Assembly (NCBI GenBank): GCA_963717935.1
Contig: CAVQXP010000004.1
Coordinates: 224,001 to 288,000 of the forward strand
DNA: 64,000 nucleotides
Source: Candidatus Eiseniibacteriota bacterium
GTDB taxonomy: Bacteria; Eisenbacteria; RBG-16-71-46
Direction of reading: 5' to 3'
The translations under genes were made by a program, and so were the position numbers. A model generated the notes under the pieces. It did no database searches, was not told where the DNA came from, and saw nothing but the letters and a program-made list of their open reading frames with translations. How positions within the stretch are numbered: the first letter of the stretch is position 1; each line of letters starts with the position of its first letter. Below, in pieces: positions 12,030 to 47,153 of this stretch.

Positions 12030-12045
12030 GATCTCCCCGGCCGCG

Positions 12046-13167: not shown

Positions 13168-13271
13168 GGAGCAACCTCCTCGTTGGGCTCTGCGCTGCGG
13201 GTCCGGACACATCCACGGGTGCTGCCAGGCGAGCGGAGCCGTCGCGACCCGCTCGAACTTGAGTGCGGGGG

Positions 13272-13301
13272 ACTCTAAGGCCTCGGACGACCGATGGACA
13301 A
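13272..13301 (-). promoter_or_regulatory. Possible sigma70 promoter for the dehydrogenase-lyase operon
   Basis: Minus strand TTGTCC-18 nt-TAGAGT. Confidence 0.35.
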
Positions 13302-13485
13302 TGCGAGGAGGGGGCCGCGGGCGCCGAAATTCATTCGGCCGGAGCGAACGCGCCGGCACGGCGCTCGAGGCGGGAGCCGCAAGGGAGGCAAGGGGCTACA
13401 GGAGCGGAAGGCCGCGTGGAGATGCCACGGGGGCCGCCCGGTCAGGCGGACAGGACGGCCCCTGCTGTCGGTCACGGGGAGTGCG

Positions 13486-32069: not shown

Positions 32070-33458
32070 CTAGTACTTGAAGTAGATGAACGACAGCCCC
32101 GCCTGGGCGGCGAACATCACGATCAGGGACACGACCAGCAGCCCCAGCGCGAACGTCACCCAGGCCCGCCGCCGCAGCAGCCACTCGTCCAGCTGGAGCG
32201 GGTCCTTCACGATCTCGATGCCGATCATCAGCAGCAGCGGGAACAGCGCGTTCGCCAGCAACGGCTGGTTGAAGAACGGCCCCGGCCGGCCCAGCGCGCG
32301 CAGGGCCTCGCCCGCCTCGGCGAGCGAGCCCGCGCGGAAGAAGAGCCATGCGAACAGCGCCTGGTGGAACGTGACGATGATGGCGATCCAGCGCGCGATC
32401 CCGCGCCGGGGCGGCCGTTTCCCGCGCAGGCGCCAGATCAGCAGGTAGATCCCGTGCAGCGCGCCCCAGATCACGTAGGTCCAGGTCGCGCCGTGCCACA
32501 GGCCGCAGGCGAGGAACACCAGCAGGATGTTGCGCGCCTCGCGCGCGCCCGGCTCGAAGGCCCCGCCCAGCGGCAGGAAGACGTAGTCGCGCAGCCAGGT
32601 CGTGAGCGAGACGTGCCAGCGCCGCCAGAACTCCTGGATGTCGCGCGCCAGGTAGGGCGCCTGGAAGTTGAAGACCAGATCGATCCCCAGGAGCCGCGCG
32701 ATCCCGACCGCCATGTCGGAGTAGCCGCTGAAATCGCAGTAGATCTGGAAGGCGAACAGGTAGGTCGCGAGCACCATGCTCGCGCCGCTGTGGGCGGCCA
32801 GGTTGCCGTAGACCGCGTCCACGTAGGGCCCGAGGTTGTCCGCGACCACGACCTTCTTGAAAAGCCCCCACAGGATGAGGATCACGCCCCGGTAGACGTG
32901 CTCCGCCGTCACCCGCCGGGGGCGCCGGAGCTGCTCGAGCAGGTGGTCGTGCCGCTCGATCGGCCCGGCCAGCAGTACCGGGAAGAACGCCACGAAGCGC
33001 AGGTGGTCGAACGTGGAGACCACTTCCGTCCGGCGCCGGTAGACGTCGATCGTGTAGGCCATGGACTGGAAGGTGAAGAAGCTGAGGCCGACCGGCAGGA
33101 CGAGGTGGAGCAGGGGCAGCGACGGATGCAGGCCGAGCAGCCCGAGCAGGTCGCCGGCCGACTGGACGAAGAAGTCCAGGTACTTGAAGAGCCCCAGCAC
33201 GCCCAGATTGACGCACAGGCTCACGAGGAGCCACGCCCTGCGCCGGCCCGGGTCCTCGGTGGCGCCGATCCGCGCGGACGCGGTCGCGTCGGTGAGCGCC
33301 GACAGCAGCAGGAGGCCGAGGTAACGCCAGTCCCACCAGCCGTAGAAGACCAGGCTCGCGGCGAGCAGCATCAGGTTCTGCCCGCGGAACGGCAGCAGCC
33401 GGTACAGGAGCAGGACCGTCAGGAAGAAGACGAGGAAGTCGAGCGAGGAGAATGTCAT
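32070..33458 (-). CDS. MBOAT family O-acyltransferase (AlgI/DltB-like)
   Basis: LPVGLSFFTFQ, AGPIER, QIYCDFSGYSDMA, EFWRRWHVSL, GLWHGA, FIYFKY. Confidence 0.93.
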   Translation of the reverse strand: MTFSSLDFLVFFLTVLLLYRLLPFRGQNLMLLAASLVFYGWWDWRYLGLLLLSALTDATASARIGATEDPGRRRAWLLVSLCVNLGVLGLFKYLDFFVQSAGDLLGLLGLHPSLPLLHLVLPVGLSFFTFQSMAYTIDVYRRRTEVVSTFDHLRFVAFFPVLLAGPIERHDHLLEQLRRPRRVTAEHVYRGVILILWGLFKKVVVADNLGPYVDAVYGNLAAHSGASMVLATYLFAFQIYCDFSGYSDMAVGIARLLGIDLVFNFQAPYLARDIQEFWRRWHVSLTTWLRDYVFLPLGGAFEPGAREARNILLVFLACGLWHGATWTYVIWGALHGIYLLIWRLRGKRPPRRGIARWIAIIVTFHQALFAWLFFRAGSLAEAGEALRALGRPGPFFNQPLLANALFPLLLMIGIEIVKDPLQLDEWLLRRRAWVTFALGLLVVSLIVMFAAQAGLSFIYFKY

Positions 33459-33575
33459 CGGCGGCCTCCGGGCCACCGGCGCTCGGCTTTCGACGACATG
33501 CGGGACCCTCCTCGATCAGCGGAGGCCCGACAATAGCAGGAACCACGGTCGCGGAGGCAAGGACGGCGGGGAGCA

Positions 33576-33630
33576 CGTGTCCCCGCCCGAGCGGTGCCCT
33601 ACGGCGAGCAGGACCGCGACGGCCCGCTCC
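33576..33630 (+). repeat. 55-bp direct repeat, copy abutting the stop codon of the secreted-protein gene
   Basis: 54/55 identical to 34692-34746. Confidence 0.9.
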
Positions 33631-34278
33631 CTACCGGTAGAGCGACTTGAGCTTCCCCCAGGTCGTCAGCGATGTCGATACGACGGACGACGAACTGACA
33701 CGAAGCACTCCAAGGATCTCCTTCCCCTGCTGGCCGTCCGGCACCTGGACGATGTCCACCTGCACCGGGAAGCGAACCTCCTGGCCACCGAGTGTCATGG
33801 TGATGTCGTAGCACGACGTACCCGCGTAGTCCTGCGGATAGCCAACCATGCACCAAAGCTGCCAGCCGGTCAGCGCCGGAGTGTTCCGGAACACTTCCTC
33901 CGGGCTCAGCATGGTCAGCAGGGTGTCGTTTTCGACATCCACGCAGCCAACCGCCTCATCCGGAAGAAGATCCGAGTCGAGTTCGGCTGACGACGATCCC
34001 ATCATGAAGCTGTACGGTCCCCACGGGATGTACCCCGAGGTCAAGACCCCGGTAACCTGCGCACCGTTGATCTCGGAACCGGCGATCGGCGCCGATCCGG
34101 TGTTCACGATCAGACCGCACGAGAGGCTGATGCCGCCACCGATCGCGATCGGGTCCAGGTAAGCCTTCACCAGGACGTGGTTGATGACGACCACGTCGAG
34201 GCGATCCGCAGCCTCCGCAGCGCCCCCTGCCAGCGTGCAGACCACGAACAGCGCTCCAGCCCAGATGTTCCGCGTCAT
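33631..34278 (-). CDS. Secreted hypothetical protein with C-terminal TTWGKLKSLYR motif
   Basis: Signal peptide ending AAEA; lower GC than neighbours; GGGAGGGG RBS; C-terminal TWG-x-x-K-x-x-YR. Confidence 0.8.
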   Translation of the reverse strand: MTRNIWAGALFVVCTLAGGAAEAADRLDVVVINHVLVKAYLDPIAIGGGISLSCGLIVNTGSAPIAGSEINGAQVTGVLTSGYIPWGPYSFMMGSSSAELDSDLLPDEAVGCVDVENDTLLTMLSPEEVFRNTPALTGWQLWCMVGYPQDYAGTSCYDITMTLGGQEVRFPVQVDIVQVPDGQQGKEILGVLRVSSSSVVSTSLTTWGKLKSLYR

Positions 34279-34613
34279 GGACAGGCCCCTCCCCCGGTTC
34301 TCCCTGCCCGGTCCGACCGTGACATGCACATCGCCAAGCGCAGTCCTCCCGAAGAGACCGGTCCGCGCTCGGTGAGGCAATGCAGGGTCGTCCTTGAGCC
34401 GGGAAAGCGCGGCCGAAACAGCAGGCGGGGGATCAGCACTCCCAGGGACCCAGGACGCCGTGCTCAGATGACCCTACGCCTTGACCTCGGACTGGTCCAT
34501 GCAAGTCTTCGTTGGAGGCTCAGGGCCGGGCCGGTTGCACGCGGGTCGCGTCCCGCCTCGCCAGAGCGGGGCCTGCCTGCCTCAGGGTCGTCCACCCGCG
34601 GTGCTGGAGCCGC

Positions 34614-35453
34614 TCATCGCGCCCCACGGCGCCCGGGCCGCGGCGGCGCCCCTCGCGCGACGCGCTCCAGCGCGGCGCTGATCCCGCGCAGCGTGTCCCC
34701 GCCCGAGCGGTGCCCTACCGCGAGCAGGACCGCGACGGCCCGCTCCAGCGCCTTCGCACCCGGCTTCGGCAATGCCAGCGTCTCCAGCACCCCCAGCACC
34801 GGCTCCGCGTAGAAGCCCGCCTGCGCGGCGTCGAGCATCTGCGCCGCGAGGCGCGTGGTGCGGGACGTGCCCCGCTCGAGCTCCGCGCCCAGCCGCTCGC
34901 GCAGGGCGGCCGCGGCGCCCGATGCCTCGCGCGCCGCGTCGAGCCCGGCCAGCACGCCCACGAGCACGTCGTCCCCGGAGGGCGTGAGCCCCTCGCCCAA
35001 CCCGACCAGCGTGGCGAGGCCCCGGACCTCGCCACCCGCCCGGAAGCGCTCGAGCGCGGCGGCGAGCGCGGGCTCGAAGGATGGGGCCGTCGGCTGTGCC
35101 GCCGCACCCCGCGCGAGCGTCCGCAGCCCGGCGGCGGGCAGCGCGCGCAACCGGCGCCGCAGCCGCAGGTCCACGACCTCGAGCCCCGCCAGCTCGATCC
35201 TCAGCGCCCCCGCCTCGACCACGCCGTCCGCGACGCGCACCGGCGCACCCTCGGCGATGCGCCCGAGGTCGCGCCGGGTGAGCGGGACGGCGACGGACCA
35301 GGGATGCAGGGGCGACTTCGCGGGCAGCAGGGCCACCAGCGGACCATCGTCGAGCAGCAGGTTGACCGCCCGGGCGTGGACCGAGACGACGAAGCCGCGC
35401 CGGTCGCCGATCAGCGCTTCGGCGGCGAAGGGTCCGGCGCGGCGGGCGCTCAT
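34614..35453 (-). CDS. DUF2877 protein (YahE/YlbF/AllH-like)
   Basis: LVGLGEGLTPSGDDVLVG and VGHRSGGD motifs. Confidence 0.85.
   Translation of the reverse strand: MSARRAGPFAAEALIGDRRGFVVSVHARAVNLLLDDGPLVALLPAKSPLHPWSVAVPLTRRDLGRIAEGAPVRVADGVVEAGALRIELAGLEVVDLRLRRRLRALPAAGLRTLARGAAAQPTAPSFEPALAAALERFRAGGEVRGLATLVGLGEGLTPSGDDVLVGVLAGLDAAREASGAAAALRERLGAELERGTSRTTRLAAQMLDAAQAGFYAEPVLGVLETLALPKPGAKALERAVAVLLAVGHRSGGDTLRGISAALERVARGAPPRPGRRGAR
34692..34746 (+). repeat. 55-bp direct repeat, copy inside the 3' end of the DUF2877 gene
   Basis: 54/55 identical to 33576-33630; encodes ERAVAVLLAVGHRSGGDT. Confidence 0.9.
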
Positions 35454-35467
35454 CGCTTCGGCGCGGC

Positions 35468-36376
35468 TCAGCGCTTCGGCTTGCGCTTCGCCGCGGCTCC
35501 CCGGGCCGGCGTGGGCCTGCGGCCGTGCAGTTGCGGCGCCAACGCCCCGGCGATGTCGCCGTACTTCGTGAGCTTGCACTTCGCCTTGATCTTCATGAGC
35601 TGCTCGTAGCGCTTGTCGTCCACGAACGCCACGATGCGCGAGATCGAGGACTCGCCGTCCACGAAGCGCCAGGGGAAGCAGCCGACCTCCACGCGCTGGT
35701 TCAGCAGCAGGTCGATGTCCCCGCCCAGGCACTCGGCGTGGATGATGCCCTTGTTGAACATCTCGAGGTGCATCAACTGGTACTTGCTGTCGTCGAAGAA
35801 CTCGGCCAGCGGCTTGCCGTACTTGGCCCGGAAGTGCTGGTCGGCCTGGCGCGCCTGGCGGGGCATCCAGTCGCGGATGATGGTGTTCATCGGGTGGTCG
35901 GCGCTGCCGCAATCCACGCCGATCCAGCGCAGCTTCTTCTTCTTGGCCCACTGGGCGAACTCCCGGTCCGGCCCCGGGTGCTTGACCATGTAGGCGATCT
36001 CGTCGGCCGTGGGCTGGTCCCAGCCGTGGTGGTGGAAGCCGGTGTGGATGATGAGGATGTCGCCGGTGCGGACCTCGACGCGCTCCTCGACCATCTTCGA
36101 GGTGTAGACGTCGTAGGCGCCGCACACGTCCGAGAGGTCCACGATCGCCGCGTCGTGCACCAGGAAGTCCAGGTCGAGCGAGGCGATGTCCTTGCCCGGC
36201 GTGTAGAAGTGGATCTCGCCGTCGAGGTGCGTGCCGAGGTGGTTCGAGTGCGTGAGCAACTGGCCGTTGGCGCCGTTGGGCGCGAGCCGCTTGAAGTACT
36301 TGATCTGCAGCGGCTCGTAGGTCGGCCAGGCCGGCGTGCCGATGCCGAGGGGGATGGTGAGGTCGATGAGCTTCAT
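35468..36376 (-). CDS. Cyclase family metal-dependent amidohydrolase (KynB/isatin hydrolase-like)
   Basis: MKLIDLT, NHLGTHLD (HxGTHxD), GDILIIHTG, IGVD, IHAECL. Confidence 0.88.
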   Translation of the reverse strand: MKLIDLTIPLGIGTPAWPTYEPLQIKYFKRLAPNGANGQLLTHSNHLGTHLDGEIHFYTPGKDIASLDLDFLVHDAAIVDLSDVCGAYDVYTSKMVEERVEVRTGDILIIHTGFHHHGWDQPTADEIAYMVKHPGPDREFAQWAKKKKLRWIGVDCGSADHPMNTIIRDWMPRQARQADQHFRAKYGKPLAEFFDDSKYQLMHLEMFNKGIIHAECLGGDIDLLLNQRVEVGCFPWRFVDGESSISRIVAFVDDKRYEQLMKIKAKCKLTKYGDIAGALAPQLHGRRPTPARGAAAKRKPKR

Positions 36377-36402
36377 GGTCTCCTCCGAAGCGTGACGGCG
36401 CG

Positions 36403-37854
36403 TCAGGCCCTGGCGGCCGGCGCGCCGAGCGACTCTGCGAACGCGAGCAGCGCCTGGCGGAAGCACGCGAGCGGCGGCTTCACCAGGCCGGCGCCCACCA
36501 TGCCGATGCCGGGCTGCTTGTGCGCGATGCCGGTGTTGACGACCGGCACGACGCCGCTCTCGACCACCTTGAGCAGGTCGATGCCGGTCGCCGTGCCGCG
36601 GAAATCGAGCGCCGGGATCTTGTAGACCGGGTGCTCGGCGAGCGTGATGTCGTACATGCGGCGCGTGTAGCCGAGCGCCTGCGCGGCGCTGCCGCCCACG
36701 AACTGGACGATGGCGGGCGCGGCGGCCATGGCCATGCCCCCGAGCCCGGCCGTCTCGGTGATGACCGAGTCGCCGATGTCGGGCGCGGCGTCCGCGGCGC
36801 TGAAGCCCGGCAGGTAGAGCCCGTCCACCATGGGCGCGGGGGCCGTGAACCAGCGCCCGGGAAGCCCCGACACCTGGATGCCGAAGTCGGTCCCGTTGCG
36901 CGCCATGACGCTGACCATGGCCGAGAGCGGGATGCCGGCCGCCGGGTCGAGCGAGCACTTGCTCGCCGCCATGGAGAGATTCAGGAAGAAGTGGTCGTTG
37001 CCGTCGAGGAAGCGCAGGACCGCCGCGATGTCGTCGGCGCCGGCCTTGATCCTCACCAGGTGCGGCGCCAGCGCACGGATGAGCAGCGAGGTGGCCGCGC
37101 GGTTGCGGTTGTGCACCTCGTCGCCCATCTGGAGCGCCTGGGCGATGACGTTGCGCAGGTCGAGCGGCCCGTGCGAGGCCAGCGCCTCGCGCAGCGCAGG
37201 GGCCAGCACCTGCTCCATCCAGCGCAGGCGCACGAGGACCTCGTCGTCGTAGGCGCCGTAGCGCAGCACCTTGCCGAGCCCCTCGTTGAGCGTGGAGAAG
37301 GCGCGGTTGCCGAAGGCCGTGTTCTCGAGAATCCACACCGGCATCGAGGCGGTGACCACGCCGGCCATCGGCCCCACCGTGGCGTGGTGGTGGCAGGGCG
37401 CGAACGCCACCTTGCCCGAGGCCGCGAGCCGCGCGGCCTCCTCGGGCGTCTTCGCCAGCCCTTCGTAGACCAGGCCGCCCATCACCGCGCCGCGCGTCGG
37501 CCCGCTCATGCGCTCCCACTCGACCGGCGGGCCGGCGTGGAGCACGAGGTCCCGGCGCATGCCGGGGACGGCGTCGAGCGCCGTGCCGATGCCGACGATG
37601 ACCGGCCGGGCCGCGAGCAGCCGCTCGACCGACTGGCGGGTCGCCGCGGCGATGTCGGCGCGCACCGCGCCGTCCGCGCCGAGGCAGGCGTCGAGCGCGG
37701 CGAGCACCGCGGGGTCGCCGCCCGCGGGGGGCCGCCAGTCCACGTCCACCGCGCTGCCGCCCGCGCGGCGCAGGTCGGTCGCGAAGGAGGCCAGGCCGAC
37801 ATTCACGACCGACAGCTCCGCGCCGAAGAGCGCGAGCACCTGCTCGACGTTCAT
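36403..37854 (-). CDS. DUF1116 protein (YahG/YlbE/AllG-like) with N-terminal extension domain
   Basis: VLHAGPP, VGPMAG, NEGLGKVLRYGA, MGDEVHNRN, NDHFFLNL, DIGDSVITE, NTGIAH. Confidence 0.9.
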   Translation of the reverse strand: MNVEQVLALFGAELSVVNVGLASFATDLRRAGGSAVDVDWRPPAGGDPAVLAALDACLGADGAVRADIAAATRQSVERLLAARPVIVGIGTALDAVPGMRRDLVLHAGPPVEWERMSGPTRGAVMGGLVYEGLAKTPEEAARLAASGKVAFAPCHHHATVGPMAGVVTASMPVWILENTAFGNRAFSTLNEGLGKVLRYGAYDDEVLVRLRWMEQVLAPALREALASHGPLDLRNVIAQALQMGDEVHNRNRAATSLLIRALAPHLVRIKAGADDIAAVLRFLDGNDHFFLNLSMAASKCSLDPAAGIPLSAMVSVMARNGTDFGIQVSGLPGRWFTAPAPMVDGLYLPGFSAADAAPDIGDSVITETAGLGGMAMAAAPAIVQFVGGSAAQALGYTRRMYDITLAEHPVYKIPALDFRGTATGIDLLKVVESGVVPVVNTGIAHKQPGIGMVGAGLVKPPLACFRQALLAFAESLGAPAARA

Positions 37855-39386
37855 CGCCCGGCCCCCCCCAGCACGGCGGCGGCGAACAGGGCCGCGCGCC
37901 GGTTGTCCGTTTCGACGGTCACTCCGGCGTCCGCGAGCCGGCGCACCTGCGCGTCGTAGCCCTGCGGGTCCTCGCCCGTGCCCGTGACCGAGGCGACCGC
38001 CACCAGTTCGCGCCCCTGCGCCCGGCGCCGCGCCTGGTCCACGCCCGCGGCCAGCACGCCCGCCGGGTCCGGGTGCGAGCCGTAGCCGATCACGCAGTCG
38101 AACAGCAGCAGCCCGGCCGCGGGATCGGCCGACTCGACCGCGAGCCGCTCGTTGCGCAGCACCGGCTCGATCATCGGGTGCGGCCGGCCCCGCGTGAACA
38201 CGTCGTCGCCCAGGTCGAGCAGCACGTGGCCCGGCACCGGCTCGACGCCGTCCACCCGCAGCGCGCCCTGCTTGTGCAGGTTCGAGCGCACCTCGAGCCC
38301 GGCGCGCGCGAGCAGGGCGAGCGCCTCCTGCCCGGTCGTGCCACCGCAGAACAGCGCCTTGAGCGCCGCGCCCGGCCGCAGGAGCGCCGCGGCCGACGCG
38401 ACGCACGACGCATCCGCGACCGGCGGCGGCGGCGTGAAGGCGAGACCGCTCAGCCGGCAGGCCAGCTCCGCCGCGCCGGCCAGCGAATCGGCGAAGACGA
38501 TCCCGTGGGCCGGGTCCTCCGGGCGCGGGGCGTCGCCCACGAAGTGGATCACGCAGGGCTTCGGCGTCGCCGCCAGCGCCGCGACCACCTGTTCCGCCAC
38601 CGCCGGAGCCGGCGGCTTCGAGATCACGACGATCACCTTCGTCTCCGGGTCGGCCGCGAGCGCCTCGATGCCCAGCCGCATCATGAGCCCGCCCACCGCG
38701 GCCGAGAGGTCGCGTCCGCCCGTGCCGATGGCCTGCGAGACGCCACCGCCGAGACGATGGACCAGGCTCGAGACCTCCTGGATGCCCGTGCCCGCCGCGC
38801 CCACGATACCGATGGGACCGCGCCGCACGGCGTTGGCGAAGGCGAGCGGCCGGCCGTCGAGGATGGCGGTGCCGCAGTCGGGGCCCATCATCAGCAGCCC
38901 GCGCGCCGCCGCCTCGCGCTTGAGCGCGACCTCGTCCTCGAGCGTCACGTTGTCCGAGAAGAGCATCACGTGCCGGCCCAGCGCAAGCGCGCGCCGCGCC
39001 TCGCGCGCGGCGTGCTCGCCGGGCACCGAGATGAGGACGAGGTTGGCCTCCGGGTGGGCCCGCACGGCCGCCGCGAGCGACGCCGGACGCGTCTCCTCGT
39101 CCGCGCCCGCGTCGGGCCGGGCCTGCAGCAACCGCTCCAGCTCCGCCTCGACCGCCGCCGGCGAGCCGGCCGCGCCCTTCACCGCGATGAGCAGGTCGTT
39201 GGGCGTGGCCACCGCGAGCGCGGGCCCGCCGTAGCCCTGCGCGCCGAGCAGGTCGCGGTTCTGCGGCGTGCCCATGGCGACCACCGCGTCCTCGACGCCC
39301 GCGAGGCCCTTCAGGGCCTGCGAGACCCGCATCAGGAGCACGGAGTCGTGATACGAGTCCCTGCGGACCAGCACGAAGGCAGCCAC
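37851..39386 (-). CDS. fdrA: FdrA/YahF family acyl-CoA synthetase-like protein
   Basis: YHDSVLLM, AMGTPQN, FSDNV, MMGPDCGT, GTGGRDLS, GGT, DLGDD, GRPHPMI. Confidence 0.9.
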   Translation of the reverse strand: MAAFVLVRRDSYHDSVLLMRVSQALKGLAGVEDAVVAMGTPQNRDLLGAQGYGGPALAVATPNDLLIAVKGAAGSPAAVEAELERLLQARPDAGADEETRPASLAAAVRAHPEANLVLISVPGEHAAREARRALALGRHVMLFSDNVTLEDEVALKREAAARGLLMMGPDCGTAILDGRPLAFANAVRRGPIGIVGAAGTGIQEVSSLVHRLGGGVSQAIGTGGRDLSAAVGGLMMRLGIEALAADPETKVIVVISKPPAPAVAEQVVAALAATPKPCVIHFVGDAPRPEDPAHGIVFADSLAGAAELACRLSGLAFTPPPPVADASCVASAAALLRPGAALKALFCGGTTGQEALALLARAGLEVRSNLHKQGALRVDGVEPVPGHVLLDLGDDVFTRGRPHPMIEPVLRNERLAVESADPAAGLLLFDCVIGYGSHPDPAGVLAAGVDQARRRAQGRELVAVASVTGTGEDPQGYDAQVRRLADAGVTVETDNRRAALFAAAVLGGAGR

Positions 39387-39396
39387 GTCTCCCCCG

Positions 39397-42270
39397 CTAT
39401 CCCCTGGCTCCGCCCGCCGCGGTCTTCGCCGGCTGCGTCCCGCCCTCCGCCGCGCGCTTGAGCGTCAGGAAGACGCGCTCGGGATCCAGCGGCAGCTCGA
39501 AGAACTCCACGCCGGTGGCGTTCGAGACCGCGTTGCCCACCGCGCCCGGCACCGAGATCATCGAGTGCTCGGCCACGCCGCGCGCGCCGTAGGGTCCCTG
39601 CGGATGCGGCGTCTCGACGAAGAACTGCTGCATCACCGCCGGGATGTCCTTCGCGGTCGGGATCTTGTAGTCCGTGAACGAATTGTTGAGCAGCCGGCCG
39701 TTCTGGAACACGAACTTCTCCATCACCGCCGAGCCCAGCCCCTGCACCACGCCGCCGATCACCTGCATGCGGCACTGCTGCAGGTTCAGCACCTTGCCCG
39801 CGTCGAAGGCCGAGACGAGCTTGAGCACCTGGATGTGACCGGTGTCGGTGTCCACCTCGAGCTCGACGGCGTGCGCACCGTAGGTCCAGTTGAGCGCCGG
39901 CAGTCCCTGGCCCGTCTGCGGGTCGAGGTTCGTGAGGCCGGTCGCGATGTAGCGGCCCTTGCCGATCACCGGCCCGCCGATGCTGCTGCCATCCGGGTAG
40001 GTGTAGCCCAGCACGAGCTGGCTGTAGTCGAGCGTGCGGGCGGGCTTGCCCTTCACCCAGACCTTGCCGTCGCCGCACTCGATCTGCTCGGGCGGGGCAT
40101 GGAGCGCCTGCCCGGCGACGCTGCGGATCTGGTCGAGGCACTCCTTCGCCGCCTGGATGACGGCGTTCCCGCCCATCACCGAGAAGCGGCTCGCCACCGT
40201 CTGCCAGTCGTAGGGCGTGTAGTCGGTGTCGCTGTCCCACGGCACGCGCACCTTCTCGAGCGGGAGCCGCAGCTCGTCCGCCGCGATCTGCGCGAGCGCG
40301 GTGTAGGTGCCCTGGCCGTAGTCCACGCCGCTCACCAGCAGGTTCGCCGAGCCGTCGCCGTTGAACAGGATGGTGACCGCGCACGAGGTGTAGGTCGGCA
40401 TGGCGGGCGCCTTGTGCAGCATCGCCACGCCCTTCGCCCGCACCTTGCCCGAGCCCGGCGCGACCGGTCTGGCGGCGCGCACCTTCGGATTCCAGCCGAT
40501 CGCCTCGGTGACGAGCCGCAGGCACTCCTCGGGCCGGCCGTGGCCCGGGGTGAACTCCTCGCCGGTGATGGTGGTCTCGCCCACGCGCAGCAGGTTCTTC
40601 CGGCGGAACTCGACCGGATCCAGGCCCAGCGCGAGCGCCACCATGTCCATGTTCCGCTCGATGCCCCACAGCACCTCGAGGTGGCCGAAGCCGCGGTAGG
40701 CGGTGCCGTGGATCTTGTTGGTGTAGACCACCAGCGAGTCGAGCTTGCAGTTCGGGATCACGTACGGCCCGGCGCCGGAGTAGGCCGCCGCGCGCCCGAC
40801 GTTGACGCCGTAGTCGGCGAAGGCGCCGGCATCCCACAGGTAGGTGACGTCGAGCGCGGTGATGCGCCCGTCCTTCGTGACCCCGGTCTTGATGGTGCTC
40901 TGCAGTCCCTGGCGCGAGGGCAGGGTGTTGAACTCCTCCTCGCGCGTGGCGCTGATCTTCACCGGACGCCCGCCCGCCGCCTTCGACAGGCAGTAGACCA
41001 GCGGCTCGAGGTGGATGCCCGCCTTGCCGCCGAAGCCGCCGCCGACGTAGGGCACCCTCACGCGCACCTTGCCCGGCGCCATGCCGAACGTGCGGCAGAA
41101 CAGCGTCCGCACGGTGAACGGCGACTGGGCCGAGGTGATGATCTCGACCTCGCCGTCGGCGCGCGCGGTGGCGATGGCCACGTGCGTCTCCATCGGCACG
41201 TGCTGCACCGGCGGGTTCTGGAAGTGGAACTCGAAGACGCGGTCCGCCCGGGCCATGCCCTGCTCGACGTCGCCCTTGCGGATCTTCTGGTGGTGGGCGA
41301 TGTTGCGGCCCGGCTCCGGGAAGAACACGCCCTTCATCCACGAGTAGTCCGCCAGGCCCGGATGCACCTGCGGCGCGCCGTCCTTCAGCGCCGCGTGCAC
41401 GTCGAGCACCGGTTCCAGCACCTCGTACTCGACCTCGATCGCCAGCGTGGCGAGCTTGGCCTGGATCCAGGTATCGGCCGCCACCGCCGCGACGGCCTCG
41501 CCCTGGTGGTGCACCACGCCGCGGGCGAGGATGTCCTTGTCCTCCATGTAGAGCCCGAGCTTGTAGGGCAGGTCGGCGCCGGTGAGCACCGCCTTCACCC
41601 CCGGCATCGCCTTCGCCTTCGACACGTCGATGCGCCGGATGCGCGCCGAGGCATGCGGCGAGGTCAGGATGCGGCCGTGCAGCATCCCGTCCAGCGTCAG
41701 GTCGTGCACGAACATCGCCGAGCCCGTCACCTTCGCCGCCGCGTCCACGCGGTTGACCTCGCCGCCCACGTAGGGCGCCGTGGGCGCGGGCTTGGCGCGG
41801 TAGCCGCCCTTCGCCACGGCCTCGACCGCGTCGATGATCGGCTCGTAGCCGGTGCAGCGGCAGTAGTTCCCCGAGAGCGCCTCGACGATCTCGTCGCGGG
41901 TCGGCTTCGGGTTCCGCTTCAGCAGCGCGCGGGCGGAGGCGAGCATGCCCGGGGTGCAGAAGCCGCACTGGATGGCGCCGTGGTCCACGAACGCCTGCTG
42001 CAGCACGGAGAGCGTGCCGGGCTCGCCGTTCTCGGCCTCCGCGGTCTCGATCACCGCGCCGTCGGCCTCGACCGCGAACACCAGGCAGGAATTCACCGGC
42101 TTGCCGTTCAGGATCACGGTGCACAGTCCGCACTCGCCGATGTAGCAGCCCGACTTCACGCTGTGCTGGTGCAGGTCCTCCGTCAGCAGCTGGTGCAGCG
42201 TCCGGTTCGCCGGGACCTCGAGGGTGGAGGTCTCGCCGTTCACCGTCAGGGTGATCGGGTAGAGACTCAT
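39397..42270 (-). CDS. Xanthine dehydrogenase family Mo-hydroxylase, fused 2x[2Fe-2S] and molybdopterin subunit
   Basis: GCYIGECGLC, QCGFCTPG, CRCTGY; GGGFGGK, AYRGFG, DYGQG, GGVVQG, DYKIPT, ARGVAE. Confidence 0.92.
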   Translation of the reverse strand: MSLYPITLTVNGETSTLEVPANRTLHQLLTEDLHQHSVKSGCYIGECGLCTVILNGKPVNSCLVFAVEADGAVIETAEAENGEPGTLSVLQQAFVDHGAIQCGFCTPGMLASARALLKRNPKPTRDEIVEALSGNYCRCTGYEPIIDAVEAVAKGGYRAKPAPTAPYVGGEVNRVDAAAKVTGSAMFVHDLTLDGMLHGRILTSPHASARIRRIDVSKAKAMPGVKAVLTGADLPYKLGLYMEDKDILARGVVHHQGEAVAAVAADTWIQAKLATLAIEVEYEVLEPVLDVHAALKDGAPQVHPGLADYSWMKGVFFPEPGRNIAHHQKIRKGDVEQGMARADRVFEFHFQNPPVQHVPMETHVAIATARADGEVEIITSAQSPFTVRTLFCRTFGMAPGKVRVRVPYVGGGFGGKAGIHLEPLVYCLSKAAGGRPVKISATREEEFNTLPSRQGLQSTIKTGVTKDGRITALDVTYLWDAGAFADYGVNVGRAAAYSGAGPYVIPNCKLDSLVVYTNKIHGTAYRGFGHLEVLWGIERNMDMVALALGLDPVEFRRKNLLRVGETTITGEEFTPGHGRPEECLRLVTEAIGWNPKVRAARPVAPGSGKVRAKGVAMLHKAPAMPTYTSCAVTILFNGDGSANLLVSGVDYGQGTYTALAQIAADELRLPLEKVRVPWDSDTDYTPYDWQTVASRFSVMGGNAVIQAAKECLDQIRSVAGQALHAPPEQIECGDGKVWVKGKPARTLDYSQLVLGYTYPDGSSIGGPVIGKGRYIATGLTNLDPQTGQGLPALNWTYGAHAVELEVDTDTGHIQVLKLVSAFDAGKVLNLQQCRMQVIGGVVQGLGSAVMEKFVFQNGRLLNNSFTDYKIPTAKDIPAVMQQFFVETPHPQGPYGARGVAEHSMISVPGAVGNAVSNATGVEFFELPLDPERVFLTLKRAAEGGTQPAKTAAGGARG

Positions 42271-43121
42271 GACGCCCTCCCCGCGCCGAGCAGCCGGCGC
42301 GCGAGCCGGCGGCACAGCAGCGCGGTCATCTCGCGCCGATACTCGGCCGAGGCCCGCACGTCGTCGATCGGCTGGATGTGCTCCACGGCCAGCGCCGCGA
42401 GGCGCTCGCCGACGTCCTTCGGGTCCGACTTGGGCCCGACGCCCGTGAGCGCCGGCACCAGCGCCGGCCGCACGGCGCACGAACCGATCGCCACGCGCAG
42501 CGTGCCCGCCGCCGGGTCGAAGGCCGCCGCCGAGTTCACGATCGCCAGGTCGTGCCCGCAGGTGCGCTTGATCTTGTCGAAGGCGCTCGCGAGCCCCTTC
42601 GCCGGCTTCGGCACGATCACCGCCGTCACCAGCTCCCCGGGAGCGAGCGCGGTCTTCTTCACGCCCAGGAAGAAGTCCGAGAGCGGCGCCTCCCGCGTCC
42701 CCTGAGAACCCACGACGCGCAGCCGCCCGTCCAGCACGAGCAGCGGCGGGGCGGTGTCCATGCAGGGCGAGGCGTTCGAGAGGTTCCCCGCGACCGTGGC
42801 CCGCCAGCGGATCTGCAGCGAGCCGATCGCCTCCGCCCCCTCCGCGAGCGCCGTGAAGACCTCGCGGATGCGGGCGTCCTCGGCGACGTCCTGCACCCGC
42901 ACGCAGGCGCCGATCTCCAGGTCGCCCGCGGGCGTCCAGCGGACGGTCCCCAGCTCGGGGATGCGCTTGATGTCCACCAGCACGGTGGGTTGCGGACCGC
43001 CGCGCAGCGCGATCATCAGGTCGGTCCCGCCGGCCAGGATCCTCGCGCCTCCGCCGGCCCCGGCCAGCAGCGCGGTGGCCTCGGCCACCGTGCCCGGTCT
43101 CTCGTAGCGGAAGCCACTCAT
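42267..43121 (-). CDS. Xanthine dehydrogenase family FAD-binding subunit
   Basis: LAGGTDL, IGSLQIR, ATVAGNLSNASP, PIDDVRASAEYR. Confidence 0.92.
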   Translation of the reverse strand: MSGFRYERPGTVAEATALLAGAGGGARILAGGTDLMIALRGGPQPTVLVDIKRIPELGTVRWTPAGDLEIGACVRVQDVAEDARIREVFTALAEGAEAIGSLQIRWRATVAGNLSNASPCMDTAPPLLVLDGRLRVVGSQGTREAPLSDFFLGVKKTALAPGELVTAVIVPKPAKGLASAFDKIKRTCGHDLAIVNSAAAFDPAAGTLRVAIGSCAVRPALVPALTGVGPKSDPKDVGERLAALAVEHIQPIDDVRASAEYRREMTALLCRRLARRLLGAGRAS

Positions 43122-43203
43122 GGTCTCTTCTCCCCTGCGGCCTGCGACCCGGAGCGCCGGCGCTCCCGCGGTCGCGAGCGCCGCGGGGCACCGTGGCCTC
43201 CGG

Positions 43204-43542
43204 CTAGACGGCGGTGAAAACCAGCCCGGTGATGTCCTTGCCGTTGATCTCGCGCACCTTGCCGATGTGCGCCCGCACGCGCGCACCGGTCTTCGGCTCG
43301 GCGATCTCCAGCCGGCCGGTCGCACGCACGCCCATGTCCAGCTCGACGATGCCCAGCGTGACGTAGAGTTGAGCGTAGTCCAGCGGCAGCGCGTAGACGC
43401 GCGTCCAGGTCAGCAGCTTGCCCTCGCCCTCGACCGGCACCGGCTCGAACTGCGTGCCACCGCACGAGGGGCAGTAGAAGTGCGTCGGATACGAGAGCTT
43501 GCCGCACTTCTTGCACTTCGCGGCTTCGACGTCCATCGCCAT
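43204..43542 (-). CDS. DUF35 Zn-ribbon/OB-fold protein (thiolase partner)
   Basis: KCKKCG..YP..YCPSCG, GEGKLLTWT, GIVELD. Confidence 0.88.
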   Translation of the reverse strand: MAMDVEAAKCKKCGKLSYPTHFYCPSCGGTQFEPVPVEGEGKLLTWTRVYALPLDYAQLYVTLGIVELDMGVRATGRLEIAEPKTGARVRAHIGKVREINGKDITGLVFTAV

Positions 43543-43543
43543 G

Positions 43544-44731
43544 TCACACCCCCCGCTTCAGGACGGTGGCGACGACGTTGTTGCCGAAACCGCCGAAGTT
43601 CACGGCGAAACCGTGCTTCGGCTGGTTCGGCACCTGGTAGTCACCCGCCTCGCCGCGCAGCTGCAGCGTGAGCTCCACGATCTGCGACACGCCGGTGTTG
43701 CCCACGGGATGCCCGCGGGACTTGAGCCCCCCCGACGGATTGATGGGCAGCTTCCCGCCGATCTGCGTCTCGCCCCGCTCGAGCGCCTTGTGGCCCTCGC
43801 CCTTCTTGAAGAAGCCGGCCTCCTCGCTCTCGACGATCTCGAGGATGGTGAAGGCGTCGTGCAGCTCGGCGACGTGGATGTCCTTCGGGGCCAGCTTCGC
43901 CATGGCGAACGCCCGCTCCGCCGCGAGCCGCACCGCGGTCAGCTCGGTCGGGTCGGGCCGGTCCTGCACCGCCTGCGAGTCGGTCGCCTGGCCCATGCCG
44001 GCGATCAGCACCGGCGTCTTCTTGAACTCCTTCGCCATCGCGGCCGGGGCCAGCAGCACCGCCGAGGAGCCGTCGCTCACCGGGCAGCAGTCGAAGAACC
44101 GCAGCGGCTCGGCGATCCACGGGTTGTTGTTGAGCGCGTCCGGCCCGGTCAGGATGCCCTCCATCGTGACCGGGATGCGCAGGTGGGCCTTCTTGTTCTT
44201 CGCGCCGTTGAGGTGGTTCTTGATCGCCACCATCGCCAGGTGCCGGGACTCGACCCCGTAGCGCTCCATGTACAGGCGCGTGAACATCCCCGCCAGCGCG
44301 GGCAGCGTCACGCCGTAGACGTACTCGGCGTAGCGGTGCGAGAGGAACGAGACGAACTCGGTCGCCTCGAAGTTGTTGACCTCCTGCATGCGCTCGCCGC
44401 CGCACACCAGCACGAGGTCGCAGTACCCCGAGGCGACGGAGTGGACGCCGTGCTTGATGGCCGAGGCGCCCGAGGCCGGGCCGTTCTCGATGGTCTCGGA
44501 GACCGTGTGCGGGTACAGGTTCATCCGGTCCACCAGCCCGCTGGACAGGCCGGCCATGCGGTTGTTGCGCGGCGCGCCCATGTTGGCGACGTAGACCGCG
44601 TCGATCTTCCGTTCGCCGACGCCGGCGTCCACGAGGGCGTCGTTCGACGCCTCGCACATCATCTTGAGCAGGCTCCATTGCGCCCGCCCGAACTGGGTCG
44701 AGCCCACGCCGACGATGGCCACGTCCCTCAT
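43544..44731 (-). CDS. SCP-x type thiolase-like protein lacking the nucleophilic Cys
   Basis: VAIVGVG.T.FG, ENGPASG (in place of ENACASG), CCPVSDG, AELHDAFT, NPSGGL..RGHPVG. Confidence 0.88.
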   Translation of the reverse strand: MRDVAIVGVGSTQFGRAQWSLLKMMCEASNDALVDAGVGERKIDAVYVANMGAPRNNRMAGLSSGLVDRMNLYPHTVSETIENGPASGASAIKHGVHSVASGYCDLVLVCGGERMQEVNNFEATEFVSFLSHRYAEYVYGVTLPALAGMFTRLYMERYGVESRHLAMVAIKNHLNGAKNKKAHLRIPVTMEGILTGPDALNNNPWIAEPLRFFDCCPVSDGSSAVLLAPAAMAKEFKKTPVLIAGMGQATDSQAVQDRPDPTELTAVRLAAERAFAMAKLAPKDIHVAELHDAFTILEIVESEEAGFFKKGEGHKALERGETQIGGKLPINPSGGLKSRGHPVGNTGVSQIVELTLQLRGEAGDYQVPNQPKHGFAVNFGGFGNNVVATVLKRGV

Positions 44732-45477
44732 ATGCGGGCCTCCAGCGTGTGCTCGATCTGCGTCAGCATCACGCGCAGGTCCGGCTCGCGCAGCGGGTAG
44801 GACTTCGCCAGCAGCTCGGCGGAGACCGGGCGCGTGCCCGTGACCAGCCGCGACTTGGCCTTGAAGTAGGTGTCGCGCGTCAGCACCCAGGCGGGCGCGC
44901 CGCCCAGCTCGTGCTGCACCTCGAACTTCTTGTCGAGCGGGTACTCGATCATCCAGCGCCGGTGGCCGATCGGGCTCTCGGCCACGATCCAGACCTCGTC
45001 CTGGCCCAGGTACTCGATGTGGTGCTCCATCTTCGAGGCGAAGAGGTGCGAGCCCACGCGCAGGCCGCGCTTGAGGGTCAGCGTGTGGAACGAGACGCCG
45101 TGCTTCTCGTCCCAGAGCCGGCCGTTCACGATGCCGGCCAGCACGCCGTCGATCACGCCGACCAGGCAGTACTCGTCGCGCACGCGGTGCGTCTTCCAGC
45201 CCAGCAACTCGGCGAACAGGCGGGCCGAGACGATGTCGTAGTAGTCGCGATTCAGCCAGGAGAGCGGCTGGATGACCTTGAGCATCGTGTCCACCTCGTC
45301 CACCGAGGCCTGGCGCACGACCATGGTCTCGCCACTCGCCAGCAGGACGGCCTTGGGGGGATAAGGGGCCATGGGCAGCGCGGGTGGGCGCAGCATGGCC
45401 TCGAGTTCGTCGATCATGCGCTCCTCCTCGGAGGTGAGGTATTCGCCAGCATCCCAGTCGTAGACAGGGGGGCTCAT
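44728..45477 (-). CDS. GNAT-fold N-acetyltransferase-like protein
   Basis: MVVRQAS.DE..., CLVGVIDG.LAGIV, HTLTLKRGLRVG (resembles acetyl-CoA-binding motif A). Confidence 0.6.
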   Translation of the reverse strand: MSPPVYDWDAGEYLTSEEERMIDELEAMLRPPALPMAPYPPKAVLLASGETMVVRQASVDEVDTMLKVIQPLSWLNRDYYDIVSARLFAELLGWKTHRVRDEYCLVGVIDGVLAGIVNGRLWDEKHGVSFHTLTLKRGLRVGSHLFASKMEHHIEYLGQDEVWIVAESPIGHRRWMIEYPLDKKFEVQHELGGAPAWVLTRDTYFKAKSRLVTGTRPVSAELLAKSYPLREPDLRVMLTQIEHTLEARI

Positions 45478-45636
45478 CGAAGGCTCCAGGCTGAAACGGG
45501 TCGCCCGCCCAGAGGGGACCGGGAGGGCGGAAGAGAACCGGATAACACTTCCACGTCGCGGCCGCAACGACAAGGGGACTTTCGGACCGTCCCGGGGCCC
45601 CCATCGGGCGGCTGTGGCCGGCGCGACTCCGCAGGA

Positions 45637-46533
45637 TCAGCGCAGGAACAACACCACGACCCCCGCCACCGCCACCAGCGCGCCGGCCAGGGTCCGCAGG
45701 GTCAGGCGCTCCCCGTGGAAGCGGGACGAGAGCAGCAGGGTGAGCACCGGGTAGATGGCGGTGATGGAGGCGGCCACGCCGGCCTCGATGTACTTGAGCG
45801 CGGTGAGCGACAGGGTCACGCCGAGGAACGGCCCGAAGAAGGCGCCGCCCACCATGAAGGCAGAGCCCGCTCGGTCGCGCAGCGCGTCGAACGAGCGGCG
45901 CACGTCGCGCTGCGCCGCCGCCAGCAGCCAGATGCCGACCGCGGCCGCCACGATGCGGACCACGGTCGCCGAGAGCGGGTCGAGCCCCGTGCGCAGGGCC
46001 AGCTTCGAGAGGACGTAGCCGCCCGCCTGCCCCACCGCGGCCAGCACGCCCGCCACCACCCCCACCAGGATCGAGCCCTCGATGTGAGCCTGCGCCGGGT
46101 GCTCCTGCTCCCAGATGACCCAGGCGATGCCACCCAGCGTGAGCGCCATGCCGAGCAGGATGAGCGGCCCGGGATGCTCGCCCAGCAGCGGCCAGGCGAG
46201 GAGTGCGGTGAAGATGGGCGCGGTCGAGGTGACGAGCGCCGCCCGGCCGGGGCCGAGGATGACGAGCGAGCGGAAGTAGTAGGTGTCGCCGAATACGAAG
46301 CCCACCAGCCCGCTCACCGCGAGCAACCCGACCGCCCACGGGGTCGCCCACACGGGCCAGGGGGAGCCGCGCAGGAAGAACAGCGCGGTGCACAGGAGCC
46401 CGGCGGCCACGGTGATGCGCAGCCGGTTGAGCACGACCGAGCCCATGCGCTGGCCGGCGGCCGCGAAGAAATTGGAGCCGGCCGCCCAGCACGTGGCGGT
46501 GCCGAGGGCGGCGAACTCGCCGGCGAATCTCAC
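45637..46533 (-). CDS. DMT/EamA family transporter
   Basis: Ten TM segments in two EamA-like repeats; SGLVGFVFGD, PIFT, GE. Confidence 0.88.
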   Translation of the reverse strand: MRFAGEFAALGTATCWAAGSNFFAAAGQRMGSVVLNRLRITVAAGLLCTALFFLRGSPWPVWATPWAVGLLAVSGLVGFVFGDTYYFRSLVILGPGRAALVTSTAPIFTALLAWPLLGEHPGPLILLGMALTLGGIAWVIWEQEHPAQAHIEGSILVGVVAGVLAAVGQAGGYVLSKLALRTGLDPLSATVVRIVAAAVGIWLLAAAQRDVRRSFDALRDRAGSAFMVGGAFFGPFLGVTLSLTALKYIEAGVAASITAIYPVLTLLLSSRFHGERLTLRTLAGALVAVAGVVVLFLR

Positions 46534-46594
46534 GGGACGCCCCGGGGCGCGTGGGGGGCGCGGCGGCCGAAACCGCTCGCGGAGTGGCTCGGAC

Positions 46595-46978
46595 TCAAGA
46601 GCGCGGCAGGCCCGCGGACGCGGACTTCACCTCGAGGATGTGGTTCTTCTCGTCCACCAGCACGACGCGCGGCTTGAAGCCGGTCACCTCCGCCTCATCG
46701 AGGGAGGCGTAGGCCGCCACGATCAGACGGTCGCCGGCATTCGCGAGCCGCGCGGCGGCGCCCATCACGCAGATGGTGCCCGAGCCGCGCGGAGCCTTCA
46801 CGACGTAGGTCGAAAAGCGCTGGCCGGTGTTGACGTTGTAGATGTCCACGCGCTCGTACTCGTGCAGGTCGGCCGCCTCGAGCAACGTCTCGTCCACCGC
46901 GCAGGAGCCCTCGTAGTGCAGCTCGGTCTGCGTGACCGTGACGCGATGGAGCTTGGACTTGAGGAGCGTGCGCAACAT
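46595..46978 (-). CDS. panD: Aspartate 1-decarboxylase
   Basis: [19 protein letters not shown] cleavage site, GQRFSTY, GAAARL. Confidence 0.95.
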
Positions 46979-47094
46979 GGGAATCCGCCTCCGTTGGGGA
47001 GGACAAAGGTACCCGAGACCGGGCTTCGGACGCCAACCGGCCACGCCGTGGCGCGATTCAGGCGTGCGGGGGACCGCGTCCGCCCTGGAGAAGC

Positions 47095-47131
47095 GGGGGG
47101 CCCACGGAGCGCGAGACCCCGTGGACCCCCC
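47095..47131. terminator. GC-rich hairpin downstream of pepT
   Basis: GGGGGGCCCACGG...CCGTGGACCCCCC imperfect inverted repeat. Confidence 0.4.
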
Positions 47132-47153
47132 GAACCCTCTGCGGCGGGCCCGG

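Follow-up and report, generated by a model that had tools for sequence, protein, structure and literature searches.

A conserved nine-gene operon joining a molybdenum hydroxylase, an FdrA/AllG/AllH module and a GNAT-fold/thiolase-fold/DUF35 trio: a candidate route of pyrimidine catabolism

What pathway would call for a molybdenum hydroxylase, the three subunits of an FdrA-type enzyme, a metal hydrolase and a trio of proteins resembling GNAT acetyltransferases, thiolases and DUF35 scaffolds? This question is raised by nine adjacent genes in a 64,000-nucleotide stretch of DNA from a Candidatus Eiseniibacteriota bacterium (contig CAVQXP010000004.1, positions 224,001 to 288,000), which we refer to as the window. 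We found that the trio and the block of xanthine dehydrogenase (XDH)-family, FdrA-type and cyclase-family genes are kept together in many uncultured anaerobic bacteria. From the gene structure, protein families, folds, cysteine losses, conservation and co-occurrence we infer a substrate and each reaction. We tentatively propose, with slightly less than even confidence, that the operon encodes a self-contained, oxygen-independent catabolism of a ureide-containing heterocycle, likeliest uracil or thymine, that would proceed via barbiturate and ureidomalonate.

Nine genes form one operon

The window has a G+C content of about 70%, and raw lists of its open reading frames (ORFs) were full of spurious frames. 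The real frame of each gene was chosen by third-position G+C, which is 0.9–1.0 for the nine ORFs that fill the minus strand between 34614 and 45477 (Table 1). All nine are intact and co-oriented, as an earlier note made from the DNA letters had described, and the successive junctions from the GNAT-like gene to the AllH gene measure −4, +1, +82, −4, +10, −4, +26 and +14 nt. With junctions no wider than +82 nt, the genes could well be transcribed as a single unit, and we conclude that the nine genes are one operon and one conserved catabolic unit. Pfam upheld eight of the nine family calls, the exception being the GNAT-like protein.

Table 1. Genes of the operon and the transporter gene directly upstream (aa, amino acids).
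Feature	Position	Strand	Length	Matching models
GNAT-fold protein, unnamed family (P0001)	44728-45477	-	249 aa; 229 aa from ATG at 45417	
Thiolase-fold protein without catalytic cysteines (P0002)	43544-44731	-	395 aa	Pfam Thiolase_N (1.9e-24), Thiolase_C_1 (9.2e-46)
DUF35 protein (P0003)	43204-43542	-	112 aa	Pfam zf-ChsH2, OB_ChsH2_C
XDH-family FAD subunit (P0004)	42267-43121	-	284 aa	Pfam FAD_binding_5, CO_deh_flav_C
Fused 2Fe-2S/molybdopterin subunit (P0005)	39397-42270	-	957 aa	Fer2, Fer2_2, Ald_Xan_dh_C, MoCoBD_1, MoCoBD_2
FdrA/AllF-type subunit (P0006)	37851-39386	-	511 aa	CoA_binding, Ligase_CoA; NCBIfam NF004760
AllG/DUF1116-type subunit (P0007)	36403-37854	-	483 aa	Pfam AllG (6e-99)
Cyclase-family metal hydrolase (P0008)	35468-36376	-	302 aa	Pfam Cyclase (1.6e-29)
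AllH/DUF2877-type subunit (P0009)	34614-35453	-	279 aa	Pfam AllH (2.2e-20)
EamA (DMT) transporter, directly upstream	45637-46533	-		Pfam EamA (6e-38)

The trio and the XDH/FdrA block are conserved together

Gene neighbourhoods were compared in two sets of loci. The first, which drew on one genome per prokaryote species, was anchored on AllG; the best 80 of more than 342 loci with AllG relatives were scored by tblastn with the nine window proteins. All 80 contained AllG, 75 had a cyclase-family gene following it, 72 had FdrA and 50 an XDH subunit. The full trio of GNAT-like, thiolase-like and DUF35 genes was present in 21 loci (and a partial trio in 3 more), and all nine families in 12, many of the missing genes falling at contig ends. 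The nine-family cluster occurs in at least five gene orders, in metagenome-assembled genomes (MAGs) labelled with about ten phyla. The order seen in the window recurs in MAGs labelled Eisenbacteria, Sumerlaeota and Phycisphaerales; the order FdrA–AllG–cyclase–trio–AllH–XDH is found in Sphaerochaeta and Acidobacteriota, trio–AllH–FdrA–AllG–cyclase–XDH in Bacteroidota, and XDH–FdrA–AllG–cyclase–trio in Pelolinea-type Chloroflexota. A second group of Eisenbacteria has a divergent arrangement. Recurrent neighbours in these loci were PucR-type regulators (19–20 loci), NCS2 nucleobase permeases (14–17), family III CoA-transferases (11–12) and amidases (10).

The second set was anchored on the GNAT-like gene. 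A pattern built from a 10-sequence alignment gave 598 matches, 589 of which encode relatives, and the best 80 of those were analysed. In 69 of the 80, both a thiolase-like and a DUF35 gene come after the GNAT-like gene; the 11 exceptions were mostly contig ends, and two loci (L139 and L155) are genuinely without the pair. The flank contained one or more genes of the XDH/FdrA block in 44 of the 80 loci, and of the 28 loci of at least 15 kb, 17 had at least two of the genes for FdrA, AllG and cyclase. Four loci (L023, L027, L139 and L155) have the GNAT-like gene without thiolase-like and DUF35 genes, so the three proteins are not an obligate unit and the GNAT-like protein can work without the other two. 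In L139 and L155 (10001–11051, plus strand), which are of Eisenbacteria type, it is followed by a 123-aa ORF without a family.

The coupling was also apparent across whole genomes, for which we give plain counts, as the genomes are related and many are incomplete. In the window's phylum (201 genomes), 23 genomes had the GNAT-like gene and 22 had AllG; 22 had both, 1 had the GNAT-like gene only and none had AllG only, and the positive genomes were spread over 11 of 82 genera. In a second phylum, that of genome G001 (151 genomes), the corresponding numbers were 38 and 44, with both in 33, the GNAT-like gene only in 5 and AllG only in 11. Ten of these 11 AllG-only genomes have only a lower-scoring type of AllG (about 190–254 bits), and the GNAT-like gene is present in 29 of the 30 genomes of this phylum with high-scoring AllG (at least 328 bits). 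Among control genomes, 1 of 14 had an AllG match. The earlier note had proposed that the Mo-hydroxylase, the FdrA/DUF1116/DUF2877 module, the cyclase and the trio belong to one unit, and had named rare co-occurrence of trio and block as a result that would speak against it; the counts at the level of loci and of genomes support the unit, and co-occurrence proved to be frequent.

The trio might nevertheless be unrelated in function to the block; it could, for instance, be an acetoacetyl-CoA module of lipid or isoprenoid metabolism that only neighbours the block in some lineages. Nine of the 28 long GNAT-anchored loci, mostly from Bipolaricaulota-type MAGs, carry a lone trio among housekeeping genes with no block gene within 10 kb, and the closest solved relatives of the thiolase-fold protein are acetoacetyl-CoA thiolases. 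A PNP/UDP-type nucleoside phosphorylase gene is adjacent to the lone trio in three loci. An unrelated trio is, however, difficult to reconcile with the near-perfect co-occurrence across genomes in both phylum samples, with the presence of AllG elsewhere in five of five lone-trio genomes (at a distance of tens of kilobases or on a different contig) and with the embedding of the trio inside the block in several gene orders. Moreover, the trio has no HMG-CoA synthase partner, and its thiolase-fold member has lost both catalytic cysteines. We regard an unrelated trio as very improbable.

A clue to the place of the trio came from the loci that lack it. Neither an amidase nor a CoA-transferase III ever occurred in the same AllG-anchored locus as the trio, homologues of these two proteins at E≤1e-20 were found in none of the 80 GNAT-anchored loci, and the GNAT-like gene was absent from the whole genome in all five genomes of the amidase/CoA-transferase variant. 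The trio thus looks like an alternative to the amidase and CoA-transferase III pair. On a quick AllG tree with SH-aLRT (Shimodaira–Hasegawa-like approximate likelihood ratio test) support, the trio label needs four changes, indicating that the downstream module has been exchanged repeatedly on a conserved FdrA–AllG–cyclase core. This exchange is the main basis on which we place the trio after the FdrA step, where it would share its intermediate with the amidase and the CoA-transferase that follows the amidase. The alternation is a natural experiment through which the end of the pathway could be resolved.

The FdrA/AllG/AllH module probably transfers a carbamoyl group

The FdrA subunit scored above the curated cut-off of its NCBIfam model (497.9 versus 433 bits). 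It is 43% identical to E. coli YahF and 41% identical to AllF; the AllG-type subunit is 48% identical to YahG and 47% identical to YlbE (AllG), and the AllH-type subunit is 33% identical to YlbF and 32% identical to YahE over its C-terminal half. The motifs MGPDCGT, GTGGRDLS and PHPMI of the window FdrA are common to AllF and YahF, and the domain layout of the window subunits is YahF/YahG-like. In the quick AllG tree, the E. coli proteins fell outside the tight cyclase-linked clade on long branches that make their placement unreliable (2.95 for YlbE and 2.09 for YahG, compared with at most 0.92 in the clade). As the subunits are no closer to AllFGH than to YahFGE and the E. coli proteins fall outside the clade, we treat the module as a third subfamily.

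E. coli AllF–AllG–AllH interconverts oxalurate and phosphate with carbamoyl phosphate and oxamate, and its operon includes a carbamate kinase; it is the only characterised enzyme of the FdrA/DUF1116/DUF2877 type, a phosphorolytic carbamoyltransferase that acts on an acyl-urea (PMC11326118). The third subfamily described here has probably kept carbamoyl transfer, on a different acyl-urea. In a single-contig genome of the same genus as the window, the AllG match is divided into two abutting pieces (G037:C1:2183244-2183890; profile positions 1–164 and 164–215), which suggests a frameshift.

The trio combines a cysteine-less thiolase fold, a DUF35 protein and a GNAT fold

The solved chains closest to the thiolase-like protein are acetoacetyl-CoA thiolases (7yvy_A, 6esq_A and 4yzo_A), and the thiolase of 6ESQ/6ET9 is part of an archaeal thiolase/HMG-CoA synthase/DUF35 complex. 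At the position of the nucleophile the window protein has proline (ENGPASG) where 7yvy and 6esq have CASG, and the HDCF motif of 6esq, which we take to be the site of the second catalytic cysteine of thiolases, is changed to HDAF by replacement of cysteine with alanine. All 21 cluster-linked homologues share both losses. Thiolases need a pair of catalytic cysteines, and at the YDxF position DUF35-associated aldolases rely on Tyr or Tyr/Cys (PMC12329534); judged by its residues, the thiolase-like protein fits neither the thiolase nor the Tyr-based aldolase pattern. As both catalytic cysteines are gone, thiolase chemistry is not supported. The designation as a thiolase therefore holds for the fold and the Pfam domains and fails for the chemistry, although databases label the protein 'acetyl-CoA acetyltransferase'.

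The DUF35 protein consists of a zinc ribbon followed by an OB fold, and the zinc-ribbon residues C10, C13, C24 and C27 were invariant in 16 of 16 sequences. DUF35 proteins are described as scaffolds that bring a thiolase-fold enzyme together with the enzyme acting after it in the pathway, and in the archaeal complex two enzymes share one CoA site, with an exergonic step pulling an endergonic one (PMC12329534; bioRxiv 10.1101/2024.07.05.601840).

The loss of the cysteines also bears on the role of FdrA. The earlier note had assumed that a succinyl-CoA-synthetase-like FdrA complex activates the product of ring opening; this complex would be an NDP (nucleoside diphosphate)-forming acyl-CoA synthetase acting on the ring-opened acid, and the thiolase would then cleave the CoA ester. 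FdrA does carry the CoA_binding and Ligase_CoA domains of the succinyl-CoA synthetase alpha subunit, and its NCBIfam family is named 'acyl-CoA synthetase FdrA'. By contrast, the one characterised enzyme of this type is a carbamoyltransferase rather than a CoA ligase (PMC11326118), and a thiolase-fold protein without either catalytic cysteine in all 21 homologues is ill suited to cleaving the ester. Activation by FdrA has thus become less likely, and we consider this scheme decidedly improbable.

The GNAT-like protein scored below the cut-off of Pfam Acetyltransf_1 (E=0.079, 13.7 bits; cut-off 20.7) and matched no NCBIfam model, and its profile found nothing better than E=0.98 among PDB sequences. 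We detected 1999 homologues at E≤0.001; the 120 listed have no Pfam domain and are unnamed or annotated 'hypothetical protein'. A search of 1.84 billion representatives at 50% identity gave 172 relatives at E≤0.001 (many of the 150 listed being fragments), and so few matches indicate a compact, self-contained family. The AlphaFold2 model made from a 31-sequence alignment had a predicted local distance difference test (pLDDT) score of 90.3 and a predicted template modelling (pTM) score of 0.86. In Foldseek, this model matched the GNAT fold with a probability of 1.00 and gave 252 matches at E≤0.001, and the top matches listed were GNAT acetyltransferases or uncharacterised proteins. Alignment to 1yre_B (PA3270 with CoA) by VIA-align gave a Z score of 14.7 and a root-mean-square deviation of 3.1 Å over 168 residues, and the look-alikes found in the ESM Atlas were GNAT clusters too. 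On the strength of the predicted model, the GNAT identity given in the earlier note holds at the level of the fold only, as neither Pfam nor NCBIfam profiles recovered it.

Fifteen residues of the GNAT-like protein are near-invariant (D78, Y80, D81, R86, E90, R98, R120, S129, H131, T132, K149, E167, S168, H189 and E190). Its KRGLRVGS segment matches only in part what we take to be the acyl-CoA loop of GNAT enzymes (R/Q-x-x-G-x-G/A). The alternative start codon in Table 1 corresponds to residue 21 and is preceded by GGAGGAG, and most homologues begin there. Fused forms were also sought among longer proteins, which gave two matches: P0280 (536 aa), an apparent fusion of GNAT-like and thiolase-like proteins, contains frame-garbled stretches and is not a real fusion, and P0281 is an EamA protein with 33% query coverage that is probably a gene-calling merge.

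A proposed route from uracil to acetyl-CoA

The Mo-hydroxylase has a complete set of domains, comprising two 2Fe-2S domains, the a/b hammerhead, MoCoBD_1 and MoCoBD_2, and an FAD_binding_5/CO_deh_flav_C subunit. A conserved Glu near the C terminus of the Mo subunit (GVAEHS), presumably the catalytic residue of the XDH family, aligns with the Glu of 3hrd_B, 7dqx_A, 1rm6_A and 1t3q_B in four of four printed alignments. NCBIfam gave no specific identity: the best match of the FAD subunit was XdhB (152.7 bits; cut-off 310), and all 20 matches of the Mo subunit were below cut-off, the best being XdhA (519.3 versus 780 bits). The cyclase-family protein contains the His/Asp-rich sequence HLGTHLDGEIH, which we take to be the metal-binding motif of the Cyclase family PF04199 (kynurenine formamidase and isatin hydrolase type). 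Among solved structures, kynurenine formamidases come closest to it, one example being 4cz1 (E 6e-9).

Transporters encoded beside related clusters bear on the substrate. For all 13 linked NCS2 permeases, the model of uracil permease or of RutG gave a better score than that of xanthine permease (pbuX), and one, from a trio-bearing Holophagaceae locus, exceeded the uracil-permease cut-off (587.6 versus 477 bits). These uracil-type permeases narrow the N-heterocycle that the earlier note had named in general terms towards a pyrimidine. The PucR-type regulators of 19–20 related loci and the nucleoside phosphorylase gene next to lone trios in three loci are further pointers to the substrate. In one Eisenbacteria relative (L088), a homologue of the NCS2 permeases lies within 10 kb of the nine-gene cluster; it is 37% identical to the Sphaerochaeta permease over 403 aa.

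We propose that the XDH-family Mo/FeS/FAD enzyme would first hydroxylate C6 of uracil to give barbiturate. The cyclase-family metal hydrolase, rather than an AtzD-type barbiturase, would then open the ring to ureidomalonate. Neither an AtzD-type barbiturase nor an amidase-signature ureidomalonase turned up in Pfam scans of the window ORFs, and an amidase is present only in the variant loci that lack the trio. Ureidomalonate belongs to the N-acyl-ureas and is the malonyl homologue of oxalurate. FdrA/AllG/AllH could phosphorolyse it to carbamoyl phosphate and malonamate, as AllFGH does with oxalurate, after which ATP could be gained through a carbamate kinase whose gene lies outside the operon; the one carbamate kinase found in the window's genome scores 369.5 bits, above its cut-off of 358.

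In the fourth step, the GNAT-fold protein, the cysteine-less thiolase-fold protein and the DUF35 protein would turn malonamate into a CoA ester, where the amidase and CoA-transferase III of other lineages would convert malonamate into malonyl-CoA. This is the weakest step of the proposal, and its mechanism, drawn by likeness to the DUF35-scaffolded archaeal complex, is the weakest part of all. Our guess is that, within a complex scaffolded by DUF35, the GNAT-fold subunit might move the malonyl group from the amide nitrogen to CoA, an uphill reaction, and that the thiolase-fold subunit might decarboxylate malonyl-CoA to acetyl-CoA and so pull the transfer. With thymine as the substrate, this step would yield propionyl-CoA instead of acetyl-CoA. 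Cysteine-less ketosynthase-type decarboxylases and GNAT-fold malonyl decarboxylases provide precedents.

Taken as a whole, the steps would make up a complete, energy-conserving pyrimidine fermentation module that converts uracil into carbamoyl phosphate (and ATP) and acetyl-CoA by means of a cyclase-fold barbiturase, an FdrA/DUF1116/DUF2877 ureidomalonate carbamoyltransferase and a DUF35-scaffolded GNAT/thiolase-fold malonyl transfer-decarboxylation, all of them unprecedented. We consider the module in this complete form rather unlikely.

Evidence against a pyrimidine and alternative substrates

Several observations weigh against the proposed route. The window's genome, which is 93% complete, contains no NCS2 uracil permease, and the sole transporter at the operon is the EamA protein, to which no specificity is assigned. 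The only carbamate kinase lies on another contig in a ygeW/ygeX/ygeY-like cluster and may belong to the pathway encoded there. For the Mo subunit, every equivalog score is below cut-off, and the C-terminal part of the protein most resembles the nicotinate dehydrogenase 3hrd_B. The lone trios and the four loci with an unaccompanied GNAT-like gene count against the route as well. Both amide-to-thioester transfer by a GNAT fold and decarboxylation by a cysteine-less thiolase fold are analogies taken from polyketide enzymology. PucR regulators are named for purine catabolism. Finally, in a Thermoflexia MAG (L023; order AllH, FdrA, AllG, cyclase, GNAT-like, NCS2 permease, XDH) an adenine deaminase gene (4521–6272, plus strand) stands just upstream of the cluster, the one hint at purines among the related loci.

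The ygeW/ygeX/ygeY-like cluster itself occupies C2:44993-52824 of the window's genome (L083 3993-11824). Besides the carbamate kinase, it encodes a peptidase with an M20 dimerisation domain, a 429-aa OTCase-family protein, a second OTCase and a pyridoxal phosphate (PLP) enzyme, and it could represent an independent module for fermenting ureides or purines.

The same logic could apply to a purine (hypoxanthine, xanthine or urate), in which case the FdrA module would decarbamoylate a ring-opened ureido-imidazole or oxalurate. Such a substrate would fit the PucR-family regulators in 19–20 related loci, the adenine deaminase gene of L023, the XDH subunits that are the best NCBIfam matches of the Mo enzyme (all below cut-off) and the service of the characterised AllFGH in purine (allantoin) catabolism. 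It does not fit the 13 of 13 linked NCS2 permeases that resemble uracil permease or RutG more than xanthine permease, nor the distinctness of the AllG clade from E. coli AllG. In Pfam scans of the window and the recurrent neighbours, neither an allantoinase nor an allantoate amidohydrolase came to light, nor did a ureidoglycolate dehydrogenase or any enzyme of the imidazole pathway. We consider a purine unlikely.

Another heterocycle or ureide, such as a nicotinate-like pyridine, a hydantoin, orotate or a cyanurate-type ring, would leave the trio to act on a different acyl fragment. This possibility draws on the Mo subunit, given its scores below all equivalog cut-offs and its resemblance to 3hrd_B, on the EamA transporter that takes the place of an NCS2 permease in the window's genome, and on the cyclase family, whose members hydrolyse varied amides and whose closest structures here are kynurenine formamidases. 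However, FdrA/AllG/AllH implies a carbamoyl (ureide) group, which pyridines do not have, the permeases of related loci are of the uracil type, and nicotinate-pathway genes were absent from the Pfam scans of the window and recurrent neighbours. We assign it the same low probability as a purine and retain uracil or thymine as the likeliest substrate.

Surroundings of the operon

The EamA gene is separated from the GNAT-like gene by a 159-nt gap, and its upstream position is the same in two close relatives (L085, 90% identity; L004/L086, 72%). It is possible that it is a tenth gene of the operon or an importer. A scan of 33400–47000 found no promoter-like sites and two terminator-like sites, which is not above the number in shuffled sequence, and no Rfam family matched between 30000 and 50000. 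An ORF of up to 249 aa (33631–34380, minus strand) lies 233 nt downstream of AllH; it has no Pfam match and no relative by tblastn among the fetched loci.

On the other side of the operon, a peptidase M20 gene (46798–48412, minus strand) is apparently split between two reading frames, with an N-terminal part (47663–48412) and a C-terminal part (46798–47586). In L085, which is about 90% identical, both parts are in one frame (6236–6952 and 7061–7468), and the split in the window may be either a frameshift or an assembly error. Elsewhere in the window, on the minus strand, are a gene group with a CCG/4Fe-4S protein, EtfA and EtfB (218–4019) and a group matching Aconitase_C, CoA_transf_3, HMGL-like and isocitrate/isopropylmalate dehydrogenase (8094–13359), in which the CoA_transf_3 match spans only profile positions 145–366.

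Comparison with known systems

Full-text searches of the literature outside subscription journals found no description of such a cluster, family linkage or route, in agreement with the earlier note, which knew of no pathway of this kind. The novelty would lie in a combination of oxidative pyrimidine degradation with AllFGH-type carbamoyl transfer, with potentially new enzyme functions whose reactions we infer. If correct, the proposal would extend pyrimidine breakdown by a route that needs no oxygen and conserves energy stored in the ring, and would give functions to several widespread orphan families: the cyclase-linked FdrA/DUF1116/DUF2877 clade, a GNAT-fold family with about 2000 detected members, and the cysteine-less thiolase-fold/DUF35 pair. 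As hundreds of anaerobes, uncultured and originating from sediments, digesters and soils, carry the genes, these would bear on the recycling of nucleic-acid nitrogen and carbon in these settings.

Like E. coli AllFGH, which is accompanied by the carbamate kinase AllK, the window encodes three subunits of the same three families in one cluster, and ureidomalonate, on which the enzyme is predicted to act, is one step above oxalurate in the homologous series. The window subunits are no closer to AllFGH (41, 47 and 33% identity) than to YahF/G/E (43, 48 and 32%), and orthology is not upheld. No allB, allC, allD or allE and no adjacent allK was present among the scanned window ORFs, and a cyclase-family gene follows AllG in 75 of the 80 loci related to the window.

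The trio can be set beside DUF35-scaffolded complexes, of which we compared 6ESQ/6ET9, PhlABC, BbsAB, the Ltp2/Sal aldolases and the Sulfolobus KT/DUF35 fatty-acid synthase (PMC12329534; bioRxiv 10.1101/2024.07.05.601840). Like these, the window has a thiolase-fold gene followed by a DUF35 protein with a C4 zinc ribbon and an OB fold, together with a third, pathway-specific protein. It differs in that the third partner has a GNAT fold and is not HMG-CoA synthase, PhlA or a hydratase, and in that the thiolase-fold subunit has proline at the nucleophile position and HDAF in place of HDCF or YDxF.

In aerobic actinobacteria, oxidative pyrimidine degradation uses uracil/thymine dehydrogenase, barbiturase and ureidomalonase. 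The proposed route shares with it the intermediates barbiturate and ureidomalonate and a molybdenum hydroxylase as the first enzyme. By contrast, a cyclase-family hydrolase would open the ring here, carbamoyl phosphate would be formed by phosphorolysis where the aerobic pathway releases urea by hydrolysis, and the hosts of window-type clusters, unlike the aerobic actinobacteria, are mostly uncultured anaerobes.

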